From Ruminococcus sp. (GTDB taxonomy: Bacteria; Bacillota; Clostridia; Oscillospirales; Ruminococcaceae), in assembly GCA_020861185.1 (NCBI GenBank), contig JAJBSV010000007.1, positions 52,093-116,092 of the forward strand: a DNA stretch of 64,000 nucleotides, read 5' to 3'. Both the position numbers and the translations under genes were made by a program. The notes under the pieces were generated by a model. It was not told the DNA's origin. It did not search any database and saw only the letters and a list, made by a program, of their open reading frames with translations. This document shows positions 1,165-62,366 of this stretch, piece by piece (position 1 is the stretch's first letter; each line of letters opens with the position of its first letter).

Positions 1165-1236
1165 TGTAGGGGCGGATATCATCCGCCCGAACAATAGCAT
1201 ATACGAAAAAGTGGGCGGATAATATCCGCCCCTACA
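1165..1236. repeat. REP1 palindromic element, copy A (25-bp terminal inverted repeats, MITE-like)
   Basis: TGTAGGGGCGGATATCATCCGCCCG - 23 nt - GGGCGGATAATATCCGCCCCTACA. Near-identical copies lie at 41190..41260 and 62294..62366. Confidence 0.85.
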
Positions 1237-1238
1237 AG

Positions 1239-1268
1239 AAAAGCTGTCCTTACCGGACAGCTTTTTTA
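1239..1268. terminator. bidirectional intrinsic terminator between argD and the DMT gene
   Basis: Hairpin AGCTGTCC-ttacc-GGACAGCT, flanked by an A-run and a T-run. Confidence 0.7.
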
Positions 1269-21835: not shown

Positions 21836-21992
21836 ACTTTCACCCCTTTCAAGGCTATCCAAAACAAAAGACCGGAACGAAATTCCAGCCTTTCATAAGA
21901 GTTATTAAATATAGTATACCACAGATTTTCAAAATTGCAAGAGGAAAACGCAAAAAATACGGAATTAATTTTCGAAACTGCGAATCGGTTTG

Positions 21993-22022
21993 TTGACAAA
22001 TATCAGGAACATATGATATAAT
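21993..22022 (+). promoter_or_regulatory. sense promoter of cassette 1
   Basis: TTGACA (21993) - 18 nt - TGaTATAAT (extended -10; TATAAT at 22017). Confidence 0.65.
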
Positions 22023-22081
22023 ATCAGTAGCAAGCGAGTTGAAGCGGTTTGACCTTCGATAAAACTGAGGAGGTGGCTGCT

Positions 22082-22186
22082 ATGACGATTTTCGAAGTTA
22101 TTACGACGGTTTTATCTATCGTTAATCTGATGGCGGACATAGTACTTGGCATTCTTGGTCTTCGGACTGGGAATAAAAAGAAATAA
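22082..22186 (+). CDS. 34-aa hydrophobic Lys-tailed peptide (type I toxin-like; possibly holin-like-toxin family)
   Basis: MTIFEVITTVLSIVNLMADIVLGILGLRTGNKKK. SD GAGGAGGTGG lies 6 nt upstream. Not in the ORF track because it is too short. Confidence 0.65.
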   Translation: MTIFEVITTVLSIVNLMADIVLGILGLRTGNKKK

Positions 22187-22294
22187 CCGCCCGGCTTAAC
22201 TCATAAAGGGACGGTCGATTTCCAAACATAGTGCTACCGTGAGTAGCACATTTTAGGTCGAGCCGCACTGAGTGACGTTCAGTCCAACTCTCTT
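22170..22294 (-). ncRNA. predicted antisense RNA of cassette 1 (ends approximate)
   Basis: Starts about 7 nt after the minus-strand TATAAT. A possible stop is at the U-rich tract UUAUUUCUUUUUAUU, antisense to the KKK-stop codons. Confidence 0.35.
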
Positions 22295-22300
22295 GCTATT

Positions 22301-22329
22301 ATTATACCCTATCGCTGCCCGATTGTCAA
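22301..22329 (-). promoter_or_regulatory. antisense promoter of cassette 1
   Basis: Minus strand: TTGACA (22329..22324) - 17 nt - TATAAT (22306..22301). Confidence 0.65.
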
Positions 22330-22337
22330 CAGCTTTT

Positions 22338-23237
22338 TTATTTTCCGAGGAGCTCTTCAAACTCTTCCTTCGTGCAGAACGTCGTCCCTTCATGCGAGAT
22401 TGCTCCCGCCGCTGTGGTGACGGCGTACTTGAGGACGTCTTCGAGAGGCAAGTTCTTGGTCAGGGCAAGGATTGCCCCGGCAAGCATGTTGTCGCCCGCT
22501 CCCGAGGTGCTCTTGACAGGCACCTTCATAGCCGGAGCCTTGTGGCACTCGGCTTCGGAGACGATAATCGCCCCTTCTGCACCTCTTGAGACCAAGACAA
22601 CCTGCACGCCGTAATCCGAAATTATCTTTCTCGCCGCCGAGATTATCTCACTTTCGGTGGAAATCTTCCCGACGAGCGTTTCAAGTTCAAAAATGTTCGG
22701 CTTTATCATGAAGGGATGCGCCTTCAAGCCTTCTCTCAGGAGTTCGCCTTGTGCGTCCAGAATCACTTTTGCATTCGAGAGTTCACCAAGTTCACGATAA
22801 ATATCACTTCCGACGCCCTTCGGGACGCTCCCCGCAAGGACGATAAACTCGCTGTCCCCCGAGGATTCGGCAACCGAAGCCTTCAGCGCCTCGATGCTCT
22901 TTTGTGTAACTTCGGGGTTCGACTCGTTGATTTCAGCAGTCCTGCCGAGCTCGGTCTCCATAATCTTAAGATTCGTTCTGAGCGAACCCGGGCACTGGGT
23001 AAACTTGCACTCGGTACCCTCACTCCCGAGGGTTTCGGGGATAGCTTCCCCGCCGTCGAAATTGAAGCCGAGAGCACGGCTCGGGACTCCCAATCTCGAA
23101 AGAGCTCTGCTCACATTGATTCCCTTGCCGCCGATGTCGAGGCTCACAGGCTCGACCCGGTTCATGGCATCGAGGTCGAGCTTCCCGGTCTTGACCGTCT
23201 TGTCAAGACACGGGCTGAGAGTTACCGTAGTAATCAT
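22338..23237 (-). CDS. PfkB-family sugar kinase (1-phosphofructokinase / tagatose-6-P kinase type)
   Basis: DIGGKGINVSRAL and a C-terminal GAGDNMLAG motif. Confidence 0.8.
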   Translation of the reverse strand: MITTVTLSPCLDKTVKTGKLDLDAMNRVEPVSLDIGGKGINVSRALSRLGVPSRALGFNFDGGEAIPETLGSEGTECKFTQCPGSLRTNLKIMETELGRTAEINESNPEVTQKSIEALKASVAESSGDSEFIVLAGSVPKGVGSDIYRELGELSNAKVILDAQGELLREGLKAHPFMIKPNIFELETLVGKISTESEIISAARKIISDYGVQVVLVSRGAEGAIIVSEAECHKAPAMKVPVKSTSGAGDNMLAGAILALTKNLPLEDVLKYAVTTAAGAISHEGTTFCTKEEFEELLGK

Positions 23238-24647: not shown

Positions 24648-24676
24648 TGTTGACATCAAGCGAAGCGTATGATATA
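24648..24676 (+). promoter_or_regulatory. sense promoter of cassette 2
   Basis: TTGACA (24648) - 17 nt - TGaTATAAT (TATAAT at 24671). Confidence 0.7.
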
Positions 24677-24738
24677 ATAACCTCGGTAAGAGAGCGAAAA
24701 ACGGCTTGACCTTTGATAAAACTAAGGAGGTGGTCGTT

Positions 24739-24831
24739 ATGACGATTTTAGAAGTGCTCGCACTACTTAATCTGATTACGAACATAGTACTTGGCATTCT
24801 CGGCTTAACCTCCGGGAATAAAAAGAAATAG
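24739..24831 (+). CDS. 30-aa hydrophobic Lys-tailed peptide (type I toxin-like)
   Basis: MTILEVLALLNLITNIVLGILGLTSGNKKK, with SD AAGGAGGTGG upstream. Confidence 0.65.
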   Translation: MTILEVLALLNLITNIVLGILGLTSGNKKK

Positions 24832-24935
24832 CCGAGAGCTAGAGTAAAAGTCCCGACCAATTCCGATTTTAGTGCATCCCTCACAGGAGCACATATTAGT
24901 TGAGCCGGAGCTGTTACCGGCAGCTCCGCTCTCTT
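24815..24935 (-). ncRNA. predicted antisense RNA of cassette 2 (ends approximate)
   Basis: The 5' AGAGAGC can close onto GCUCUCGG just before UAUUUCUUUUUAUU. Two internal hairpins: GGAGCUG/CAGCUCC and GUGC/GCAC. Confidence 0.35.
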
Positions 24936-24941
24936 ACTGTT

Positions 24942-24970
24942 ATTATACCCCATCGCTGTTGCTTTGTCAA
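24942..24970 (-). promoter_or_regulatory. antisense promoter of cassette 2
   Basis: Minus strand: TTGACA (24970..24965) - 17 nt - TATAAT (24947..24942). Confidence 0.7.
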
Positions 24971-25001
24971 CAGCTTTTTTATTGGGTTTAAAAGGTATTT
25001 T

Positions 25002-26607
25002 TTAAACATCCACCGCCCGTCTCGATTCTATCTTCTGCTCGCCGACGATGGCGTAGAGCTCCTCTTTCGTTGCTGAATTATCATATGTCATATAGCGGAC
25101 GTGGAGGATGTCGCCTTCCTGAAGGGTGTTGTCGCCGTGGCTGTCGACCTCGGCGCCGGCGGTTTCGCCGTGCTTGACCGAAAGAACAAAGAGGTTCTGC
25201 GGCCAGAAGATGTCCCGAATCTGCTTGCCGACGGCGAAAGTATTCCTGCCGACGATTACGAATGTATCTATTACCTTCAGGACCTTGCCGTAGTTGATTT
25301 CACGGATTCTTCCCGCAACGACCTCTTCGTTGATGGATTCGGCACCGCAGGCTTCGGTGACTATGTAGGAAAGTGCCGCCGCTAAGATTACCGGGAGAAT
25401 ATTTTCCGAGCAACCGAGGGCTTCAATCGAGAAGACCATCGCCGTAAGCGGGCACTTCATCATGCCGGAGATTCCAGCGGTGATGCCCAAGACCACAATA
25501 GTGCTGTAGTAATCCGCACTGATAAGCCCCGCGCCAATCGTAACCTTCGCGACGAGCGAGGCAACAAGCGCACTCAGCGCGATTATCGGGACGAACATAC
25601 CGCCGTTGATGCCGGTGTTGTTCGCCGCCAGGAGCATCGTAGCCCTATAGAGAAGAATCGCAAGGATAATATACCACAAGACATTTCCTTCGAGCAAGCT
25701 GTCGACGAGGTCGTGACCGGTCGAGATGAAGTCATAGGAAATAAGCCCGAACGCAAAAGTGAGCATGAAGACGATGAAAATCTTCAAGCGGAGGCTCATC
25801 GCCGAGAGCTTCTCCCCCGATGAACTTTCTCATCACCATGAAGTAGCGAAGGAAGATGACCGACATAAGACCCACGACTACAGCACAAATGGCGATAACG
25901 CCGAGCTGGGAGAGCCCGAGTTCCCGGACGTGCTCCGAAATTCCGGGGAACATGTCGGCATCCATCCCGAGAAGCGGGCACATCCACCGGACTGTGATTG
26001 ACGAGAACATGACCGACGAGAACGCCGTCATTATTATCATCGGGCTGATTCTCTGGTGAGCCTCTTCGATTGCAAACATGATTCCGGCAATCGGCGCATT
26101 CGTCGCCGCGGTGAAGCCGGCGCAGGCACCGCCGGTCATGACGTATCTGTCCCAAGCCTGATTCTTGCCCGCCATGGTCTTTACGGTTCCGCGACCGATT
26201 GCGGTACCGATCTGGACGCTCGGTCCTTCACTGCCTAATGGTACACCGACAAAGAACGTCGAGAGCGACGCCAACGTTACTCCGATAAGGTTCTTGAGCC
26301 AGTTGAAGCGGATGCCGCCTCTGAGGATTCCGATAGCCGTCGGGATGCCGCCGCCCTTGAGGTTCGGCGTCTGCTTATATACGAATGCGAGAATCGCCGC
26401 CATCGCCCCGAGGACCAAAACTGCGGGGATAACGAGCACCGGTCTTTCCCTCACGGTGGAATAGACCGTTTCCGAAAGGTTTATGACCTTGTTCGCCGCA
26501 AACCGGTACAGAACGATAAAAGCCCCCGTAAGCGTTCCCGCTATGAAGCTGAATATGAGCGCCGGCAGAGCGATATTTTTGACATAATTCAGATTGCGTT
26601 TGAACAT
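25002..26607 (-). pseudogene. ClC-family chloride channel with C-terminal TrkA-C/RCK domain, split by a frameshift
   Basis: ORFs 25732..26607 (GGGIP, GSEGP motifs) and 25002..25799 (GGMFVP motif plus RCK_C) overlap in different frames. Removing one C from the C5 run at 25814..25818 fuses them (..RKFIGEKLSAMSLRLK..). Confidence 0.7.
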
Positions 26608-27490: not shown

Positions 27491-27895
27491 TTACATCAAT
27501 TCCAAAAATTCACCTACACCGATAATTCTCGGGTCGGTTATATTCGATTCCAAAAAATCCTTGTCTCCCGTTAAAAACAAATCCGCATGGGCATCAAGTG
27601 CCGCTCTGAGAATCGGGCGGTCTTTAGGGTCGCGGATTTCTTTTTCAACATCGGTTTCTTCCTCCGGTGTCTTGACAAGACGGATATATGAAAGCGCATT
27701 GTACAAAAACGCTTCCATCTCGGTTATGCGCTCGGGGAACTTTTCTCTGAATTTTCTATGCAATTCATCCACAACATAATCACAGACAATCGGCTGAAAC
27801 GGCGGGTTTACCGCTTTATAGAAAGCGGAAGCAACCTTGCCGTTCGGGAAAAGAGCCGCAGAAATGATTATGTTAGTATCGAGCATAACTCTCAT
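27491..27895 (-). CDS. PIN-domain toxin (type II TA, VapC-like)
   Basis: MLDTNIIISA N-terminus and conserved acidic residues (LTGDKDF). Overlaps the upstream antitoxin gene by 4 nt. Confidence 0.75.
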   Translation of the reverse strand: MRVMLDTNIIISAALFPNGKVASAFYKAVNPPFQPIVCDYVVDELHRKFREKFPERITEMEAFLYNALSYIRLVKTPEEETDVEKEIRDPKDRPILRAALDAHADLFLTGDKDFLESNITDPRIIGVGEFLELM

Positions 27896-28164
27896 TCTTC
27901 GTTTTCCTCACGTCTTGAAGCAGTAATCCACTCCGCAACATCATCCTCAGAGTTGAAGCCGGCTTTTTTGGCTTCACCCTTCATCTGCTCCTGAAATTTC
28001 TGCATAGCATAAACAGCCGAATTGACGACCTTTACCGTTCCGTTTTCGAATATGAACGTCACACGGTCTCCCGTTGAAATACCGAGAGCCGCCCGAATAT
28101 TCTTCGGAATTGTGACCTGTCCCTTGGACATCACTCTTGCATCGTTTACCAATACATCAGGCAT
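27892..28164 (-). CDS. AbrB/SpoVT/MazE-family antitoxin
   Basis: SKGQVTIPKNIRAALGISTGDRV swapped-hairpin motif. Confidence 0.75.
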   Translation of the reverse strand: MPDVLVNDARVMSKGQVTIPKNIRAALGISTGDRVTFIFENGTVKVVNSAVYAMQKFQEQMKGEAKKAGFNSEDDVAEWITASRREENEE

Positions 28165-28188
28165 ATAAAGACCTCCAGTCTTAAAAAA

Positions 28189-28244
28189 GTAGGAAAGTAG
28201 GAATTTCCTACTTTTATTATATCCTATCTTCGGCTTATTGTCAA
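28189..28244 (-). promoter_or_regulatory. promoter and palindromic operator of the AbrB-PIN operon
   Basis: Minus strand: TTGACA (28244..28239) - 17 nt - TATAAT (28221..28216). The perfect palindrome GTAGGAAtTTCCTAC (28197..28211) sits at the predicted start site, next to an AGTAGGAA direct repeat. Confidence 0.6.
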
Positions 28245-28306
28245 TCGTTTTCTATTCCGAGAGTTTGCTTCGCAAACTCTCTAAGTTCGACGCAGTCGAA
28301 CTTGTC

Positions 28307-30874: not shown

Positions 30875-30904
30875 TTGACACACTGGGGAAACATATGATA
30901 TAAT
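30875..30904 (+). promoter_or_regulatory. sense promoter of cassette 3
   Basis: TTGACA (30875) - 18 nt - TGaTATAAT (TATAAT at 30899). Confidence 0.6.
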
Positions 30905-30967
30905 GCTCGTAGCAAATGCGGGGACACGCGGGCGCACTCCAGTCTGAAAGGAAGGGAGTGATAGCAT

Positions 30968-31090
30968 ATGAGTATTACGGAAGTTCTTTTGCTTCTTGAC
31001 ATACTTCTGTCGGCTGTTTCCCACAGATGCGTAGCATCTATGTTATCAACTCGGTTCCCACCGAAAGAAATAACCGCATCTTGTAGTTAG
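30968..31090 (+). CDS. 40-aa divergent small ORF of cassette 3 (possibly a frame-shifted toxin remnant)
   Basis: MSITEVLLLLDILLSAVSHRCVASMLSTRFPPKEITASCS. The family-type C-terminus (..LGSHRKK-stop) is present only in the +1 frame. Confidence 0.4.
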   Translation: MSITEVLLLLDILLSAVSHRCVASMLSTRFPPKEITASCS

Positions 31091-31181
31091 CAAAGATAGC
31101 GGCTCTTCTCACATACTTAGTTATCACGGAGACGCTTGTTTATCTGAACTGACACTTCGGATGAAACTGTCCCCGTTTGCT
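31055..31181 (-). ncRNA. predicted antisense RNA of cassette 3 (ends approximate)
   Basis: Lies downstream of the minus-strand consensus promoter. Extent inferred by analogy with copies 1, 2 and 4. Confidence 0.25.
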
Positions 31182-31187
31182 ACCAAT

Positions 31188-31216
31188 ATTATAACTCCTC
31201 GCTGTTGATTTGTCAA
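31188..31216 (-). promoter_or_regulatory. antisense promoter of cassette 3
   Basis: Minus strand: TTGACA (31216..31211) - 17 nt - TATAAT (31193..31188). Confidence 0.65.
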
Positions 31217-31224
31217 CAGCTTTT

Positions 31225-32475
31225 TTATTTGACGCTGAACGTCTCCGATACATCAGACAGCACAATATCATCATCTGTGCAAACAATCGTGAATCCGTCG
31301 TAATAGACCGAATAGATTCCGTCTGCGGCGAGGGCTTCAAGCTTTGATTCGTCGAGGGTGTCGGCGATATAGGTGTCTGTCAGCCCGAGCAGCAGGTCGG
31401 CGCAGGTCGCTGAATCGGAATAGAGCACCAGGTCCTCGGTTGCGGCTTTGCAGAGACCGTCGGTGGGATCGATATAGGGGTTTCTCGTTTCGCCGTCCTC
31501 ATAGGTATAGTAGCGCAAAGCGTCGTCCGAGGTGATTGCATAGTCATGTGCGTAAACAAAGCTCATCGCACCTTCATAAATCATATCGGCGACCGAATAA
31601 ACGGTGTCGCCCTCCCTCGAATAGAGAGTATAGGAAAACAGCTCGTCGCAACCGCCAAGGTTTCTGGTGAAGCCGTCGGCAGAGCCGATTATTCCGGCGG
31701 TATAGCCGTTTTCAATCATCACATCCGAAATATAGTCGACAACAAACGCGTTCGTCATCCACGAAAAGTCGATGAAGCTGTCGATTCCCATCTCTTCGGC
31801 ATACTTAAGATACTCGTCCGAAACGTTCAATATAACCGTGTTGTCCTCAAGAAACTCCAAAGCTACATGCTCGTCCGTGCCGACGAACCCGAGAACCTCG
31901 GCGAAATACTCCGCCTCGACGTCGTTATAAAGCGGGTCGAATTCCTTCGCCTGCCAGTCTTCATCCGAGAAGAAAAGGCTCTCGTATTCCGAATAAATCG
32001 GTCCGAGATAAATCTCACGTCCGCCACTCTCAACCATCGTCTCAAGTGCCGAATAGAGCACCTCGTCGACCACTATTTCCTCATTCGGGTGGTTGTTTAT
32101 ATACCAGACGTTAAAGACATATTCATATTCCGTGTCGGGCGTGAAGAGCTGATAAGCCGTTTCGCAGGCATCCGAATAGATGACGACTATCGCCTTGCGC
32201 TCGGTAGTCGCAGATTCACTTCCAGCGCCGATGTCGTACATAAACGTGAGCTCCGTCGCGACGCTCAGGTCGTCGACGTCCGCCTCTATCTCCTGCCAGC
32301 CGTCCGTGCCGGAAAAAAGCTCGTTGATGGCATAGCCAAACGCCGTTGCCGCAATCAGCACCAGGAGTACAACCGCGACAATCCGAAGACCGATATGCGA
32401 GGTCGAAATCTCGACGTTCTCGACCGGCTTAGGGCTCAAGTTACTTGTATGAATTCGTGACCTTGTAGATTTCAT
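31225..32475 (-). CDS. hypothetical membrane-anchored protein (416 aa)
   Basis: N-terminal TM segment (LRIVAVVLLVLIAATAF) and an acidic ectodomain. I recognise no family. Confidence 0.5.
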   Translation of the reverse strand: MKSTRSRIHTSNLSPKPVENVEISTSHIGLRIVAVVLLVLIAATAFGYAINELFSGTDGWQEIEADVDDLSVATELTFMYDIGAGSESATTERKAIVVIYSDACETAYQLFTPDTEYEYVFNVWYINNHPNEEIVVDEVLYSALETMVESGGREIYLGPIYSEYESLFFSDEDWQAKEFDPLYNDVEAEYFAEVLGFVGTDEHVALEFLEDNTVILNVSDEYLKYAEEMGIDSFIDFSWMTNAFVVDYISDVMIENGYTAGIIGSADGFTRNLGGCDELFSYTLYSREGDTVYSVADMIYEGAMSFVYAHDYAITSDDALRYYTYEDGETRNPYIDPTDGLCKAATEDLVLYSDSATCADLLLGLTDTYIADTLDESKLEALAADGIYSVYYDGFTIVCTDDDIVLSDVSETFSVK

Positions 32476-40731: not shown

Positions 40732-40922
40732 GTTAGATTTACCTCCAATAAATTTCGCGCAGGCGTTTTTAGTACAATGCCCGATGCGTGCTTTGGAAAT
40801 TCGCACTTTCATGCGAATGGTTTCCCGTGTGAGGCGGGTTTCAGCCTTTTCAATCACTGAAATCAAGCACAAATTGTGTTGACTCCGTGAGAGGAGGGTG
40901 CCCCTACCTTCACGATTGTTTC

Positions 40923-40951
40923 ATTATACGCCTTTTCTCTTCACTTGTCAA
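40923..40951 (-). promoter_or_regulatory. candidate promoter of the opp-like operon
   Basis: Minus strand: TTGACA (40951..40946) - 17 nt - TATAAT (40928..40923). This implies a ~185-nt leader. Confidence 0.55.
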
Positions 40952-41189: not shown

Positions 41190-41260
41190 TGTAGGGGCGG
41201 ATATCATCCGCCCGTTTGTTGGTTGACTGCTGGTTCGGGCGGATAATATCCGCCCCTACA
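41190..41260. repeat. REP1 palindromic element, copy B
   Basis: TGTAGGGGCGGATATCATCCGCCCG - 21 nt - CGGGCGGATAATATCCGCCCCTACA. Confidence 0.85.
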
Positions 41261-45821: not shown

Positions 45822-45984
45822 GTTTCCTCCTTTAATTGATTCCAATCCGGTTTTCGACAAAAATCGACAAAGTCGATAAGTATCAGTTTATCATACTTTC
45901 AACCGTTTGTAAAGGTGGGAATTATTAAGATTTGGGCATGAGAAAAGCTCCCCGGGGGGGAGCTGTGCACTTTGGATTATTTTG

Positions 45985-46014
45985 TTGACAACGTGTTCGA
46001 ACATATGCTATAAT
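45985..46014 (+). promoter_or_regulatory. sense promoter of cassette 4
   Basis: TTGACA (45985) - 18 nt - TGcTATAAT (TATAAT at 46009). Confidence 0.65.
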
Positions 46015-46071
46015 GCTTGTAGCAAGAGAGCACGGCTTGACCTTTTACATTTGTAAAGGGAGGTGGCTTGT

Positions 46072-46164
46072 ATGACATTTGCAGAAGTTATTCTTTTGTT
46101 GAATTTCATCTCGTCCATCGTCTTTGGAATTCTCGGTTTAACGACCGGGAACAAAAAGAAATAG
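46072..46164 (+). CDS. 30-aa hydrophobic Lys-tailed peptide (type I toxin-like)
   Basis: MTFAEVILLLNFISSIVFGILGLTTGNKKK, with SD AGGGAGGTGG upstream. Confidence 0.65.
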   Translation: MTFAEVILLLNFISSIVFGILGLTTGNKKK

Positions 46165-46270
46165 CCGAGAGCTAAAGTAACAAAGTCCCCGACCAATTCC
46201 ACTTTTAGTGCAGCCTTGAGTTGCACATTTAAGGTTGAGTCGAGGCTGTTCGCAGCAACCCCGCTCTCTT
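46150..46270 (-). ncRNA. predicted antisense RNA of cassette 4 (ends approximate)
   Basis: Lies downstream of the minus-strand consensus promoter. It is complementary to the sense 3' UTR and the stop-codon region. Confidence 0.35.
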
Positions 46271-46276
46271 GCTTTT

Positions 46277-46305
46277 ATTATAACCCATCAAGGCTATTTT
46301 GTCAA
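46277..46305 (-). promoter_or_regulatory. antisense promoter of cassette 4
   Basis: Minus strand: TTGACA (46305..46300) - 17 nt - TATAAT (46282..46277). Confidence 0.7.
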
Positions 46306-46333
46306 TAGCCTTTTTTATTTGCTCAATAGGGGC

Positions 46334-47350
46334 TCACACCGTCGTATCGTTCCCATTCAGAACATCGTGCAGTTCTTCGATGTTCTCAAGGAGCTTGCCG
46401 GCGCCGTCGACTACGCAGTCGAGCGGTCTCTCGGCAATGTAAACGGGGATGCCGGTCTCTTCGTTGATGAGGCGGTCAAGACCTCTGAGCAAAGCTCCAC
46501 CGCCGGCGAGGGTGATACCAGAGTCGATGATGTCCGCCGAAAGCTCCGGAGGAGTTCTCTCGAGGGTTGTCTTGACGGCATCGATGATGCTTGCAAGCGG
46601 GTCGGAAAGTGCTTCGCGGATTTCCTCCGAATTGATTGTGATGTTTTCGGGGAGTCCCGTCAGCAGGTTGCGCCCCTTGATTTCGAGCTCGATTTCTTCC
46701 TCCAAGGGATAAGCGGAACCAATCGAAATCTTGATATGCTCGGCGGTTCTGTCACCGATGAGGAGGTTATATTTCTTCTTGATGAAATTGATGATCGAGA
46801 GGTCGAACTCGTCGCCCGCAACTCTTACCGAGCGGCTTGTGACGATTCCGCAGAGGGAGATGACAGCTACTTCGCTGGTGCCGCCGCCGATGTCGACAAT
46901 CATCGAGCCGGTCGGCTCCTCAACGGGAAGTCCCGCACCGATTGCCGCTGCCATGGGCTCCTCGACGATGGAAACTCTCTTGGCGCCTGCGCCCTCGGCG
47001 GCTTCCTTAACGGCTCTTCTTTCAACAGCCGTGACGCCCGAAGGAATGCAGATGACGACCCGAGCCTTGACGAACGGGTTCGAGCCGATAGCTTTTCTTA
47101 TGAACTCCTGAAGCATGACGGTGCACATGTCGAAGTCGGCGATGACTCCGTCCTTGAGGGGACGGACAGCTCTGATCGAGCCGGGGGTACGACCGATGAT
47201 GTTCTTGGCGTCCTGTCCGACATACTTGACGGCGTCGGTCTTGGTGTCGACCGCGACGACCGACGGCTCACGGATGATAATGCCCTTGCCCTTGACGCAG
47301 ACGAGGGTATTAGCCGTTCCGAGGTCTATTCCTATATCTTTTTTAAACAT
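46334..47350 (-). CDS. mreB: rod-shape-determining actin homologue MreB/Mbl
   Basis: [17 protein letters not shown]..., [11 protein letters not shown]. The true ATG is at 47350; the listed ORF is extended at the N-terminus. Confidence 0.92.
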
Positions 47351-49202: not shown

Positions 49203-49288
49203 TGGTGGGAGAGGATGGATTCGGACCATCGAAGCTGAAAAGCAACAGATTTACAGTCTGCCCCCTTTGGCCACTCGGGAACTCTCCC
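49203..49288 (-). tRNA. tRNA-Tyr (GUA), class II with long variable arm, CCA encoded
   Basis: Reverse complement: GGGAGAG..CCCGAGTGGCCAAAGGGG..GACTGTAAATC..long variable arm..GATGGTCCGAATCCATC CTCTCCC ACCA. Confidence 0.9.
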
Positions 49289-49323
49289 ATATTTGATTTA
49301 CAGAAAGCCATCAGGCTTACTTG

Positions 49324-49399
49324 TGGAGCTGGTGGACGGACTTGAACCCCCGACCTGCTGATTACAAATCAGCTGCTCTACCAACTGAGCTACACCAGC
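49324..49399 (-). tRNA. tRNA-Thr (UGU), CCA encoded
   Basis: Reverse complement: GCTGGTG TA GCTCAGTTGGTAGAGC A GCTGA TTTGTAA TCAGC ... CACCAGC T CCA. One G-G mismatch in the T stem. Confidence 0.88.
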
Positions 49400-51794: not shown

Positions 51795-51813
51795 TACAAT
51801 ATCCGCCCCTACA
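51795..51813. repeat. REP1 half-copy (right arm only)
   Basis: ACAATATCCGCCCCTACA matches the REP1 right terminus. Confidence 0.6.
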
Positions 51814-62293: not shown

Positions 62294-62366
62294 TGTAGGG
62301 GCGGATATCATCCGCCCGTTATTTCGTCGCGATGGCAGGTTCGGGCGGATAATATCCGCCCCTACA
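62294..62366. repeat. REP1 palindromic element, copy C
   Basis: TGTAGGGGCGGATATCATCCGCCCG - 23 nt - CGGGCGGATAATATCCGCCCCTACA. Confidence 0.85.

Follow-up and report, generated by a model that had tools for sequence, protein, structure and literature searches.

A multi-copy cassette family in a gut Oscillospiraceae genome with the predicted layout of 3'-overlapping type I toxin-antitoxin modules

Introduction

Next to mreB in a gut Oscillospiraceae (Clostridia) genome, a perfect minus-strand promoter is built into the terminator of a convergent plus-strand gene for a 30-aa peptide, and the locus raises the question of what an RNA started there would be for: whether it would regulate the peptide, serve the next gene downstream, or reflect the end of a mobile element. 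Toxin-antitoxin (TA) systems of type I are hard to detect by homology and almost nothing is known of them in uncultured gut Clostridia; a literature search returned no paper on type I TA in Oscillospiraceae. We analyzed the whole 64-kb stretch of DNA that contains the locus (hereafter the window), together with homologous loci from other genomes, and we put the probability that each cassette of this family is a chromosomal, 3'-overlapping type I TA module resembling bsrG/SR4 at about three in four.

Convergent promoters and cassettes in the window

A pattern scan of the window for exact TTGACA-N17-TATAAT returned seven matches against 0.01 expected by chance, and three further perfect promoters were found at 18-nt spacing and none at 16-nt spacing, for a total of ten in 64 kb. 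Eight of the ten are the convergent sense and antisense pairs of four cassettes of ~335 bp (copy 1, 21993-22343; copy 2, 24650-24984; copy 3, 30875-31230; copy 4, 45985-46319), a multi-copy family with four copies here within 25 kb. The minus-strand promoters lie at 22329..22301, 24970..24942, 31216..31188 and 46305..46277, exactly where the original prediction had placed a perfect TTGACA-17-TATAAT in each copy, and the sense promoters of all four cassettes match 12/12 with a TGn extended -10, at a spacing of 17 nt at 24650 and 18 nt at 21993, 30875 and 45985. The cassettes sit between the core genes for RimP, PfkB, Na+/H+ exchanger, ClC, CotH-like protein, GH25 and MreB, each with minus-strand genes on either side.

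The two perfect promoters outside the cassettes, 28244..28216 and 40951..40923, are both on the minus strand. The latter is followed by a structured-looking leader of ~190 nt and a lipoprotein-like ORF (window 40733-40951, minus strand); this leader has no Rfam match and may be an unrecognised cis-regulatory leader.

The features of copies 1 to 3 are as follows.

21993..22343, plus strand: copy 1 cassette (promoter scan; covariance-model match of 128 bits)
21993-22022 and 22082-22186, plus strand: copy 1 sense promoter and ORF (MTIFEVITTVLSIVNLMADIVLGILGLRTGNKKK)
22329..22301 and ~22294..22170, minus strand: copy 1 antisense promoter and predicted antisense RNA
24650..24984, plus strand: copy 2 cassette (promoter scan; covariance model)
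24650-24678, 24739-24831 and 24955-24974, plus strand: copy 2 sense promoter, ORF (MTILEVLALLNLITNIVLGILGLTSGNKKK) and terminator
24970..24942 and ~24935..24815, minus strand: copy 2 antisense promoter and predicted antisense RNA
30875..31230, plus strand: copy 3 cassette, divergent subfamily (promoter scan; covariance model)
30875-30904, 30968-31090 and 31201-31220, plus strand: copy 3 sense promoter, ORF and terminator
31216..31188 and ~31181..31058, minus strand: copy 3 antisense promoter and predicted antisense RNA

Copy 2 has a 92% identical orthologue in locus L013. The ClC chloride-channel gene beside it consists of two overlapping ORFs in the window (25002-25799 and 25732-26607, minus strand) and of one 534-aa ORF in the orthologous locus L013; a frameshift, a pseudogene or a sequencing error is the likely cause of the split across 25002-26607. 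Copy 3 represents a third subfamily, found as MTLTEVLLLLELLFSVMFHLFDLWSDNHKRK in L005 and L010; its toxin ORF was probably frameshifted by a 10-nt indel, and it keeps both promoters and the antisense terminator despite the divergent ORF.

Copy 4 served as the reference, with the following features.

45985..46014, plus strand: sense (toxin) promoter, TTGACA-18-TGcTATAAT, predicted TSS ~46021 (promoter scan)
46021-46031, plus strand: P1a 5' arm, AGCAAGAGAGC (covariation, MFE structure)
46033-46042, plus strand: P1b 5' arm, CGGCTTGACC, holding the local anti-SD GACC(UU) (covariation, MFE, G·U versus A·C 25:3)
46058..46066, plus strand: Shine-Dalgarno (SD), GGGAGGTGG (helix 3: 95% paired, 3 compensatory pairs; 42 G·U versus 4 A·C)
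46072..46164, plus strand: peptide ORF of 30 aa, MTFAEVILLLNFISSIVFGILGLTTGNKKK and stop (ORF translation)
46148..46270, minus strand: predicted antisense (antitoxin) RNA of ~120 nt, TSS ~46270 (covariance-model match of 72 bits, E 1.8e-15; covariation; strand asymmetry)
46266..46237, minus strand: antisense hairpin HP1 (predicted fold)
46226..46208, minus strand: antisense hairpin HP2 (predicted fold)
46200..46157, minus strand: antisense terminator stem HP3 (predicted fold)
46156..46148, minus strand: antisense U-tract, the complement of the Lys codons (sequence)
46233-46242, plus strand: P1b 3' arm, GGTTGAGTCG (covariation)
46263-46273, plus strand: P1a 3' arm, GCTCTCTTGCT (covariation)
46277..46305, minus strand: antisense promoter, TTGACA (46305..46300), 17 nt, TATAAT (46282..46277) (exact match)
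46290..46318, plus strand: sense intrinsic terminator, stem AAGGCTATT/AATAGCCTT, loop TTGTC, T6 (terminator scan)
45946..45964, minus strand: strong terminator separating copy 4 from the GH25 gene, AGCTCCCCCCCGGGGAGCT and then T-rich sequence (terminator scan)

The last of these would halt antisense read-through from copy 4. The copy 4 peptide also occurs, in identical sequence, on another contig beside mreB, and L007 has the copy 4 cassette flanked by GH25 and mreB, with ~68 nt of additional, REP-like sequence ahead of mreB.

In copy 4 the sense hairpin spans 46290-46312 and is followed by the T-run at 46313-46318. The complement of the antisense -35, TGTCAA (46300-46305), takes in the last four bases of the loop and two more at the start of the 3' arm, and that of the -10, ATTATA (46277-46282), lies 3 nt past the P1a 3' arm GCTCTCTTGCT. 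Both overlaps proposed from the first reading of the sequence, namely a -35 shared with the sense terminator hairpin (its loop and 3' arm) and a -10 that adjoins the 3' pairing arm, were therefore recovered, the gap in the second measuring 3-4 nt. The stem itself changes in a compensatory manner (GCTGTT/AACAGC, GCTATT/AATAGC and GCCGTT/AACGGC, with three G·U and no A·C on the plus strand), and a GC-containing hairpin, a T-run and compensatory changes are what an intrinsic terminator of the sense gene should display; the stem of copy 1 is degenerate. Read on the minus strand, the sense T-run of copy 4 is an A-tract at about -48..-43 of the antisense promoter. The consensus of UP elements is known, and this A-tract at ~-40 to -48 may act as one. 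The cassette offers a clean natural example of overlapping signals, in which one gene has its -35 within the other's terminator loop, and a terminator T-run doubling as promoter-upstream A-tract adds a further overlap.

Relatives and conservation

Scanning one genome per species with the back-translated peptide motif, we found 13 homologous cassettes, all in Oscillospiraceae MAGs (JAJQ...). In all 17 cassettes (four from the window and 13 relatives) the antisense promoter matches 12/12 with exactly 17-nt spacing and the sense promoter 11-12/12, usually with TGn. Mean pairwise identity in the 17-cassette alignment is 69% (range 49-95%), and conservation amounts to 100% for the antisense hexamers, 71% for their spacer and 60% for the 3' UTR; these values show strong purifying selection on the antisense promoter. 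Samples in which the cassettes occur include SRR15219682 and ERR13998681.

A profile search of 1.84 billion representative proteins retrieved only 11 peptide clusters, tiny and all unnamed. Distant members, those ending GILGYIKK (L014, L015) and L020, keep the whole cassette design: an antisense TTGACA-17/18-TATAAT whose -35 lies inside the sense terminator, 5' and 3' parts that are complementary although their sequence is another one, and a hairpin on the antisense strand with TTATTTCTTT after it. Some distant relatives reside in prophage regions, beside terminase or baseplate genes; a pattern scan of viral contigs gave 0 matches, and BLAST against phages and plasmids none. In the prophage-borne L015 (1440-1800) a stretch of ~35 nt with the sense -35 in it (GGCGGCGGAAATTGACAAAGAACG...) recurs immediately behind the cassette, possibly as the remnant of a tandem copy or as a scar of recombination. 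Tandem arrays of mixed subfamilies, with up to four cassettes ~370 bp apart, were observed in L002 (3200-4800 and 7000-7700), L005 (6688-7490) and L010 (6109-6915). L004 (1320-1467, plus strand) holds the antisense half of the MEIADILQLLLLVIASINLGLSLGDRR subfamily without a toxin ORF and is, by its sequence, an orphan antitoxin. The family includes decayed toxins with retained antitoxins.

The predicted antisense RNA

In each copy the antisense RNA is predicted to start ~7 nt past the -10 and to fold into three hairpins, the last of which is followed by UUUUUAUU or UUUUUGUU. A covariance model was built on seven antisense copies and searched against the window and the loci, where it recovered 21 antisense copies. 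In a plain MAFFT alignment of 17 antisense RNAs the two subtypes were misaligned and RNAalifold missed the terminator helix, which the model-guided alignment resolved. In the latter, pairing extends to 94% of the cells and compensatory changes are present in 15 of 34 pairs, the observed value being reached by 0 of 500 shuffles, with 35-49% pairing in slid controls. Two perfectly antisense RNAs mirror each other's helices, and wobble pairs (G·U versus A·C) were therefore counted to tell the folding strand: the antisense terminator helix has 76 G·U and 2 A·C pairs, and is therefore selected on the antisense strand. Taken alone, the antisense RNA is not unusually stable (folding z-score -1.2), and its terminator stem, with a long loop of 18-28 nt, is absent from the list of a simple terminator scan.

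The antisense U-tract is templated by the toxin Lys codons AAA-AAG-AAA-TAR. The stretch AAAAAGAAATA is 99% conserved and shows no synonymous substitution, copy 3 with its different frame included, and this templating explains why the KKK tail of the peptide, which ends GNKKK, is invariant. A covarying hairpin with a U-tract, antisense to AAY-AAA-AAG-AAA-TAR, is found exactly where a U-rich tract opposite AAT-AAA-AAG-AAA-TAx had been proposed to end the antisense RNA after ~120 nt. A cis-antisense gene overlapping the toxin mRNA, with its own promoter and terminator as type I TA systems have, is in this way present at the level of sequence.

The sense mRNA and its peptide

The predicted toxin mRNA measures ~295-360 nt across the cassettes and 294-298 nt in copy 4, where its folding z-score is -5.56. 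It contains three nested, covarying long-range helices: in P1a the mRNA 5' end AGCAAGAGAG pairs with CTCTCTTGCT, in P1b CGGYTTGACC pairs with GGTYGAGCCG, and in the SD helix the SD GGAGGUGGC pairs with an anti-SD of the 3' UTR. Over the three helices jointly, pairing amounts to 94.3% of the cells, with compensatory changes in 12 of 28 pairs, a result that 0 of 500 shuffles reached. The ratio of G·U to A·C is 25:3 in P1b and 42:4 in the SD helix, and both therefore fold on the sense strand. Duplexes between 5' and 3' parts have a mean energy of -22.1 kcal/mol for self against -11.8 kcal/mol for non-self combinations. In copy 4 the predicted partner of the SD is either the 3'-UTR anti-SD (~46197-46207) or the local GACCUU. 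The 3' partner strands of P1a, P1b and the SD helix fall, all three, within the part of the mRNA that is covered by the complementary antisense RNA, whose 5' end (AAGAGAGC...) repeats the mRNA 5' end and is predicted to compete for the 3' arms of P1a and P1b.

The peptide ORFs are 30-34 aa long and hydrophobic, with GGAGG 7-8 nt upstream, in line with the small (<60 aa) hydrophobic ORF with its own promoter and SD by which type I TA toxin genes are recognised. Among the 34-aa paralogues the variable columns are distributed as 12/7/21 over the codon positions, a pattern that indicates that the ORF is under coding selection. The promoters, the coding selection, both terminators and the helices with their folding strands can be regarded as established from the sequences and their comparison.

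A hydrophobic peptide under antisense control need not be a toxin: it could be a non-toxic small membrane protein, holin-like, regulatory or bacteriocin-like, whose expression is tuned by the antisense RNA. The peptide has no homology to validated toxins in the database and BLASTP comparisons, nothing significant was obtained with Pfam, NCBIfam and PHROG profiles, holin profiles match it weakly (E 0.03-0.2), and the position of distant relatives beside terminase or baseplate genes agrees with such a role. Its size, single hydrophobic helix and Lys-rich C-terminus, however, fit type I toxins, and the multi-copy and tandem arrays, the locked mRNA, the frameshifted copy 3 and the orphan L004 are hallmarks of type I TA (PMC6563280, PMC6562991). 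We consider a non-toxic peptide unlikely, and a type I toxin the better description.

Cassette ends and neighbouring genes

The right ends of the cassettes meet the neighbouring genes closely. The pfkB gene (ORF 22338..23237, minus strand) ends with a TAA at 22340..22338, and the ORF 31225..32475 (minus strand) with a TAA at 31227..31225, inside the conserved TTTTTTATT tail of copies 1 and 3, respectively; the ClC stop (25004..25002) lies 19 nt from the end of copy 2 and the mreB stop (46336..46334) ~15 nt from that of copy 4. The original prediction of a neighbour TAA within the tail in copies 1 and 3, and 14-20 nt away in copies 2 and 4, agrees with these distances. Of its two corollaries, the overlap with stop codons is real and recurs in other loci, and the suggested preference for an insertion site did not find support, as no syntenic empty site was found. 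A metagenome scan with MreB as query gave 80 loci; the antisense RNA was detected in 0 of the first 50, and 0 of the 20 top MreB loci were syntenic, these being without GH25 or ilvE neighbours. Relatives of MreB at 91% identity have a terminator of their own instead.

Across the window and loci, 44 ATTATA-N17/18-TGTCAA units followed by a T-run were counted, and converging ORF ends lie within 8 nt of the T-run in ~11/45 such units. As TTTTTTATT itself holds the complement of TAA, neighbouring genes may plausibly have co-opted the end of a cassette as their terminus. In the window cassettes the interval from the upstream stops to the antisense gene is free of minus-strand terminators, which makes read-through from the upstream genes into the antitoxin terminator likely and a contribution of those minus-strand genes to antisense transcription plausible.

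A REP-like palindromic repeat (GTAGGGGCGGAT...ATCCGCCCCTAC) occurs in the window at 1166-1235, 41191-41259, 51801-51812 and 62295-62365; in L004, L007 and L011 it comes right of the T-run that ends the cassette terminator, and it is also present in L001 and L012. A weak covariance-model match at window 1184-1267 was discarded, being a REP-like palindrome with an ordinary terminator and not a cassette.

Similar units are found apart from the cassettes. On the minus strand at 27491-28260, a PIN toxin (27491-27895) and an antitoxin resembling MazE (27892-28164) make up a type II TA pair driven by the perfect promoter at 28244..28216; the sequence around this promoter has 65% likeness to the right end of the cassettes, and it looks like a solo promoter/terminator unit driving mazE-PIN. 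In L013 the rimP promoter is likewise a TTGACA-17-TATACT unit inside a terminator hairpin. Because solo promoter/terminator units drive ordinary genes, the promoter is not exclusive to antitoxins. This, and the position of 4/4 window cassettes upstream of a co-directional gene, would suit the reading of the minus-strand promoters as promoters of the downstream genes (rimP-nusA, Na+/H+ exchanger, CotH-like, GH25), with long leaders and antisense RNA as a by-product. An antisense-strand-specific terminator ~120 nt past the TSS, kept in 21/21 copies, argues against it, as do the second strong terminator ahead of GH25 at copy 4 and the promoter-like site of rimP itself (21940..21913), and long leaders would leave three covarying hairpins and an invariant U-tract template without a role. 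We regard this reading as quite unlikely.

The same observations also allow a more tentative view, possible in our opinion although we would not bet on it, in which the ~45-bp right end is a portable, dual-function gene-boundary module that spread with the cassettes, was co-opted by neighbouring genes and couples toxin repression to housekeeping transcription. One strand of such a module would carry a terminator, hairpin and T-run, and the other the A-tract, -35 and -10 of a consensus promoter. It would give a stop codon and a 3' end to pfkB, to the 416-aa gene and to GH25 in L020, and would supply promoters to downstream genes, namely mazE-PIN in the window and rimP in L013. As genes without a terminator of their own, mreB, ClC and pfkB would have transcripts that end at the antitoxin terminator, and their mRNAs would bear the full antitoxin in the 3' UTR; if this were true, the boundary module would tie repression of the toxin to housekeeping transcription.

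The ends invite yet another explanation, in which the cassette is a MITE-like element and its inverted TTGACA...TATAAT...GCAAGAGAG ends are terminal inverted repeats recognised by a transposase. By motif content the ends are indeed inverted repeats of ~40 bp, and an intergenic site can hold one cassette in one strain and a different one in another: in L013 (5230-5560, minus strand; MAG MO.2_2) the second subfamily (peptide MEIADILQLLLLVIASINLGLSLGDRR) is found at the site of copy 1, with the same right end and the pfkB stop within the T-run. The spacers between the hexamers, however, have no relation from one end to the other or from copy to copy, the four window cassettes show no target-site duplication, the hexamers fit the sigma-70 consensus at exactly 17-18 nt, and helix covariation with a strand-specific G·U bias indicates RNA. 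Homology between L013 and the copy 1 site of the window restarts exactly at the antisense -10, and strain breakpoints inside the promoter units suggest homologous exchange, not transposition. With spacers not conserved and target duplications absent, this explanation was rejected as very improbable.

Proposed mechanism

According to the type I TA reading, a consensus sigma-A-type promoter would make the toxin mRNA for a hydrophobic membrane peptide of 30-34 aa. This mRNA would be locked, with its 5' end (P1a), leader (P1b) and SD paired with its own 3' UTR. From the opposite strand a perfect promoter would make an RNA of ~120 nt with three hairpins, ended by an intrinsic terminator and perfectly complementary to the last 5-6 codons and the 3' UTR, and we infer that the two RNAs would be transcribed and would pair in vivo in a duplex of ~120 bp, that the peptide would be toxic and that the mRNA would decay. 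By analogy with SR4 and RatA, the duplex would strip the three 3' arms and trigger RNase III-type decay, and in the freed leader the local anti-SD GACCUU would re-capture the SD. An extension of the SD helix by the antitoxin, as in SR4, may also be envisaged. In silico, SD accessibility upon antisense binding went down in 9/16 cases, was nearly unchanged in 3/16 and went up in 4/16; the translational part of the model is weak because these changes are inconsistent between subtypes. The cassette, compact (~335 bp) and made of two consensus promoters and a well-defined RNA switch, should lend itself to testing and could be reused as a regulatory device.

Comparison with known systems

Rfam recognises little of these elements. 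At gathering thresholds its scan of the window returned only two tRNAs, corresponding to two tRNA genes at window 49206-49399 (minus strand; 50 and 68 bits), and scans by E-value added only sub-threshold BsrG, fstAT and rli28. The BsrG family (RF01412) scores 21 bits against a gathering value of 55, in copy 2 only, which leaves the cassettes outside that family, and BLASTP of the peptide against BsrG gave 26% identity with E 0.05 in a single pairwise comparison. The fstAT family (RF01797) scores 16.8 bits against 72 and no Fst profile matches, which places the cassettes outside Fst/par.

In architecture the closest system is bsrG/SR4 of the B. subtilis SPbeta prophage (TxpA/BsrG group), with convergent genes, a 3'-complementary antitoxin and a 5'-3' helix. 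Nucleotides 1-35 of the bsrG mRNA (~294 nt) pair with nt 232-262 in helix P1, beside the terminator, the SD lies in a helix, and SR4, complementary to the 3' part of the mRNA, frees the bsrG 5' arm upon binding and extends the SD helix (PMC3834814); RNase III is involved in bsrG/SR4 decay (PMC3834814; PMC6562991). The 3' overlap, a P1 helix adjoining the terminator and an SD in a helix all have their counterparts in the cassettes, and the layout of 3'-overlapping type I antitoxins such as RatA and SR4, recognised at the outset, is well matched by the 5'-3' helix P1, the paired SD and the 3'-complementary antitoxin of bsrG/SR4 (PMC3834814). The BsrG toxin shares with the cassette peptide its small size and hydrophobicity, an MT(V/I)(Y/F)E start and a KKK end (sequence of BsrG: PMC4342826). 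The cassette antitoxin is shorter (~120 nt versus 180 nt for SR4) and differs from SR4 in starting inside the toxin mRNA, upstream of the terminator, and because of this start its promoter is embedded in the terminator. SR4 has a stem-loop, SL2, complementary to the bsrG terminator (PMC3834814), and since it includes this stem-loop it would start beyond that terminator. The host is a member of the Oscillospiraceae and the window copies lie in intergenic regions of core genes, unlike the prophage-borne bsrG.

The B. subtilis systems txpA/RatA, bsrE/SR5, bsrH/as-bsrH and yonT/SR6 overlap at the 3' end too, act by mRNA decay through a duplex of 100-140 bp and have toxins of 29-59 aa, with no SD remodelling by RatA and SR5 (PMC6562991); they are prophage-borne and have no sequence match to the cassette. 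The par system (Fst/RNA II of pAD1 and homologues) resembles the cassettes in its convergent promoters and in the extreme economy of the shared 3' end. The par RNAs share a bidirectional terminator and pair via direct repeats in the 5' region (DRa/DRb), whereas each cassette RNA has a separate terminator, and one of the two has its promoter overlapping its partner's terminator. Within the Clostridia, CD2517.1/RCd8, CD0956.2/RCd10 and other type I systems of Clostridioides difficile are likewise convergent, overlapping and multi-copy, with hydrophobic toxins that have Lys-rich C-termini (PMC6563280), but these toxins are 34-59 aa long, associated with prophages or CRISPR arrays and without sequence relation to the cassettes. 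From the sequence comparisons we conclude that the cassettes form a new family within a known kind, the 3'-overlapping type I TA systems.
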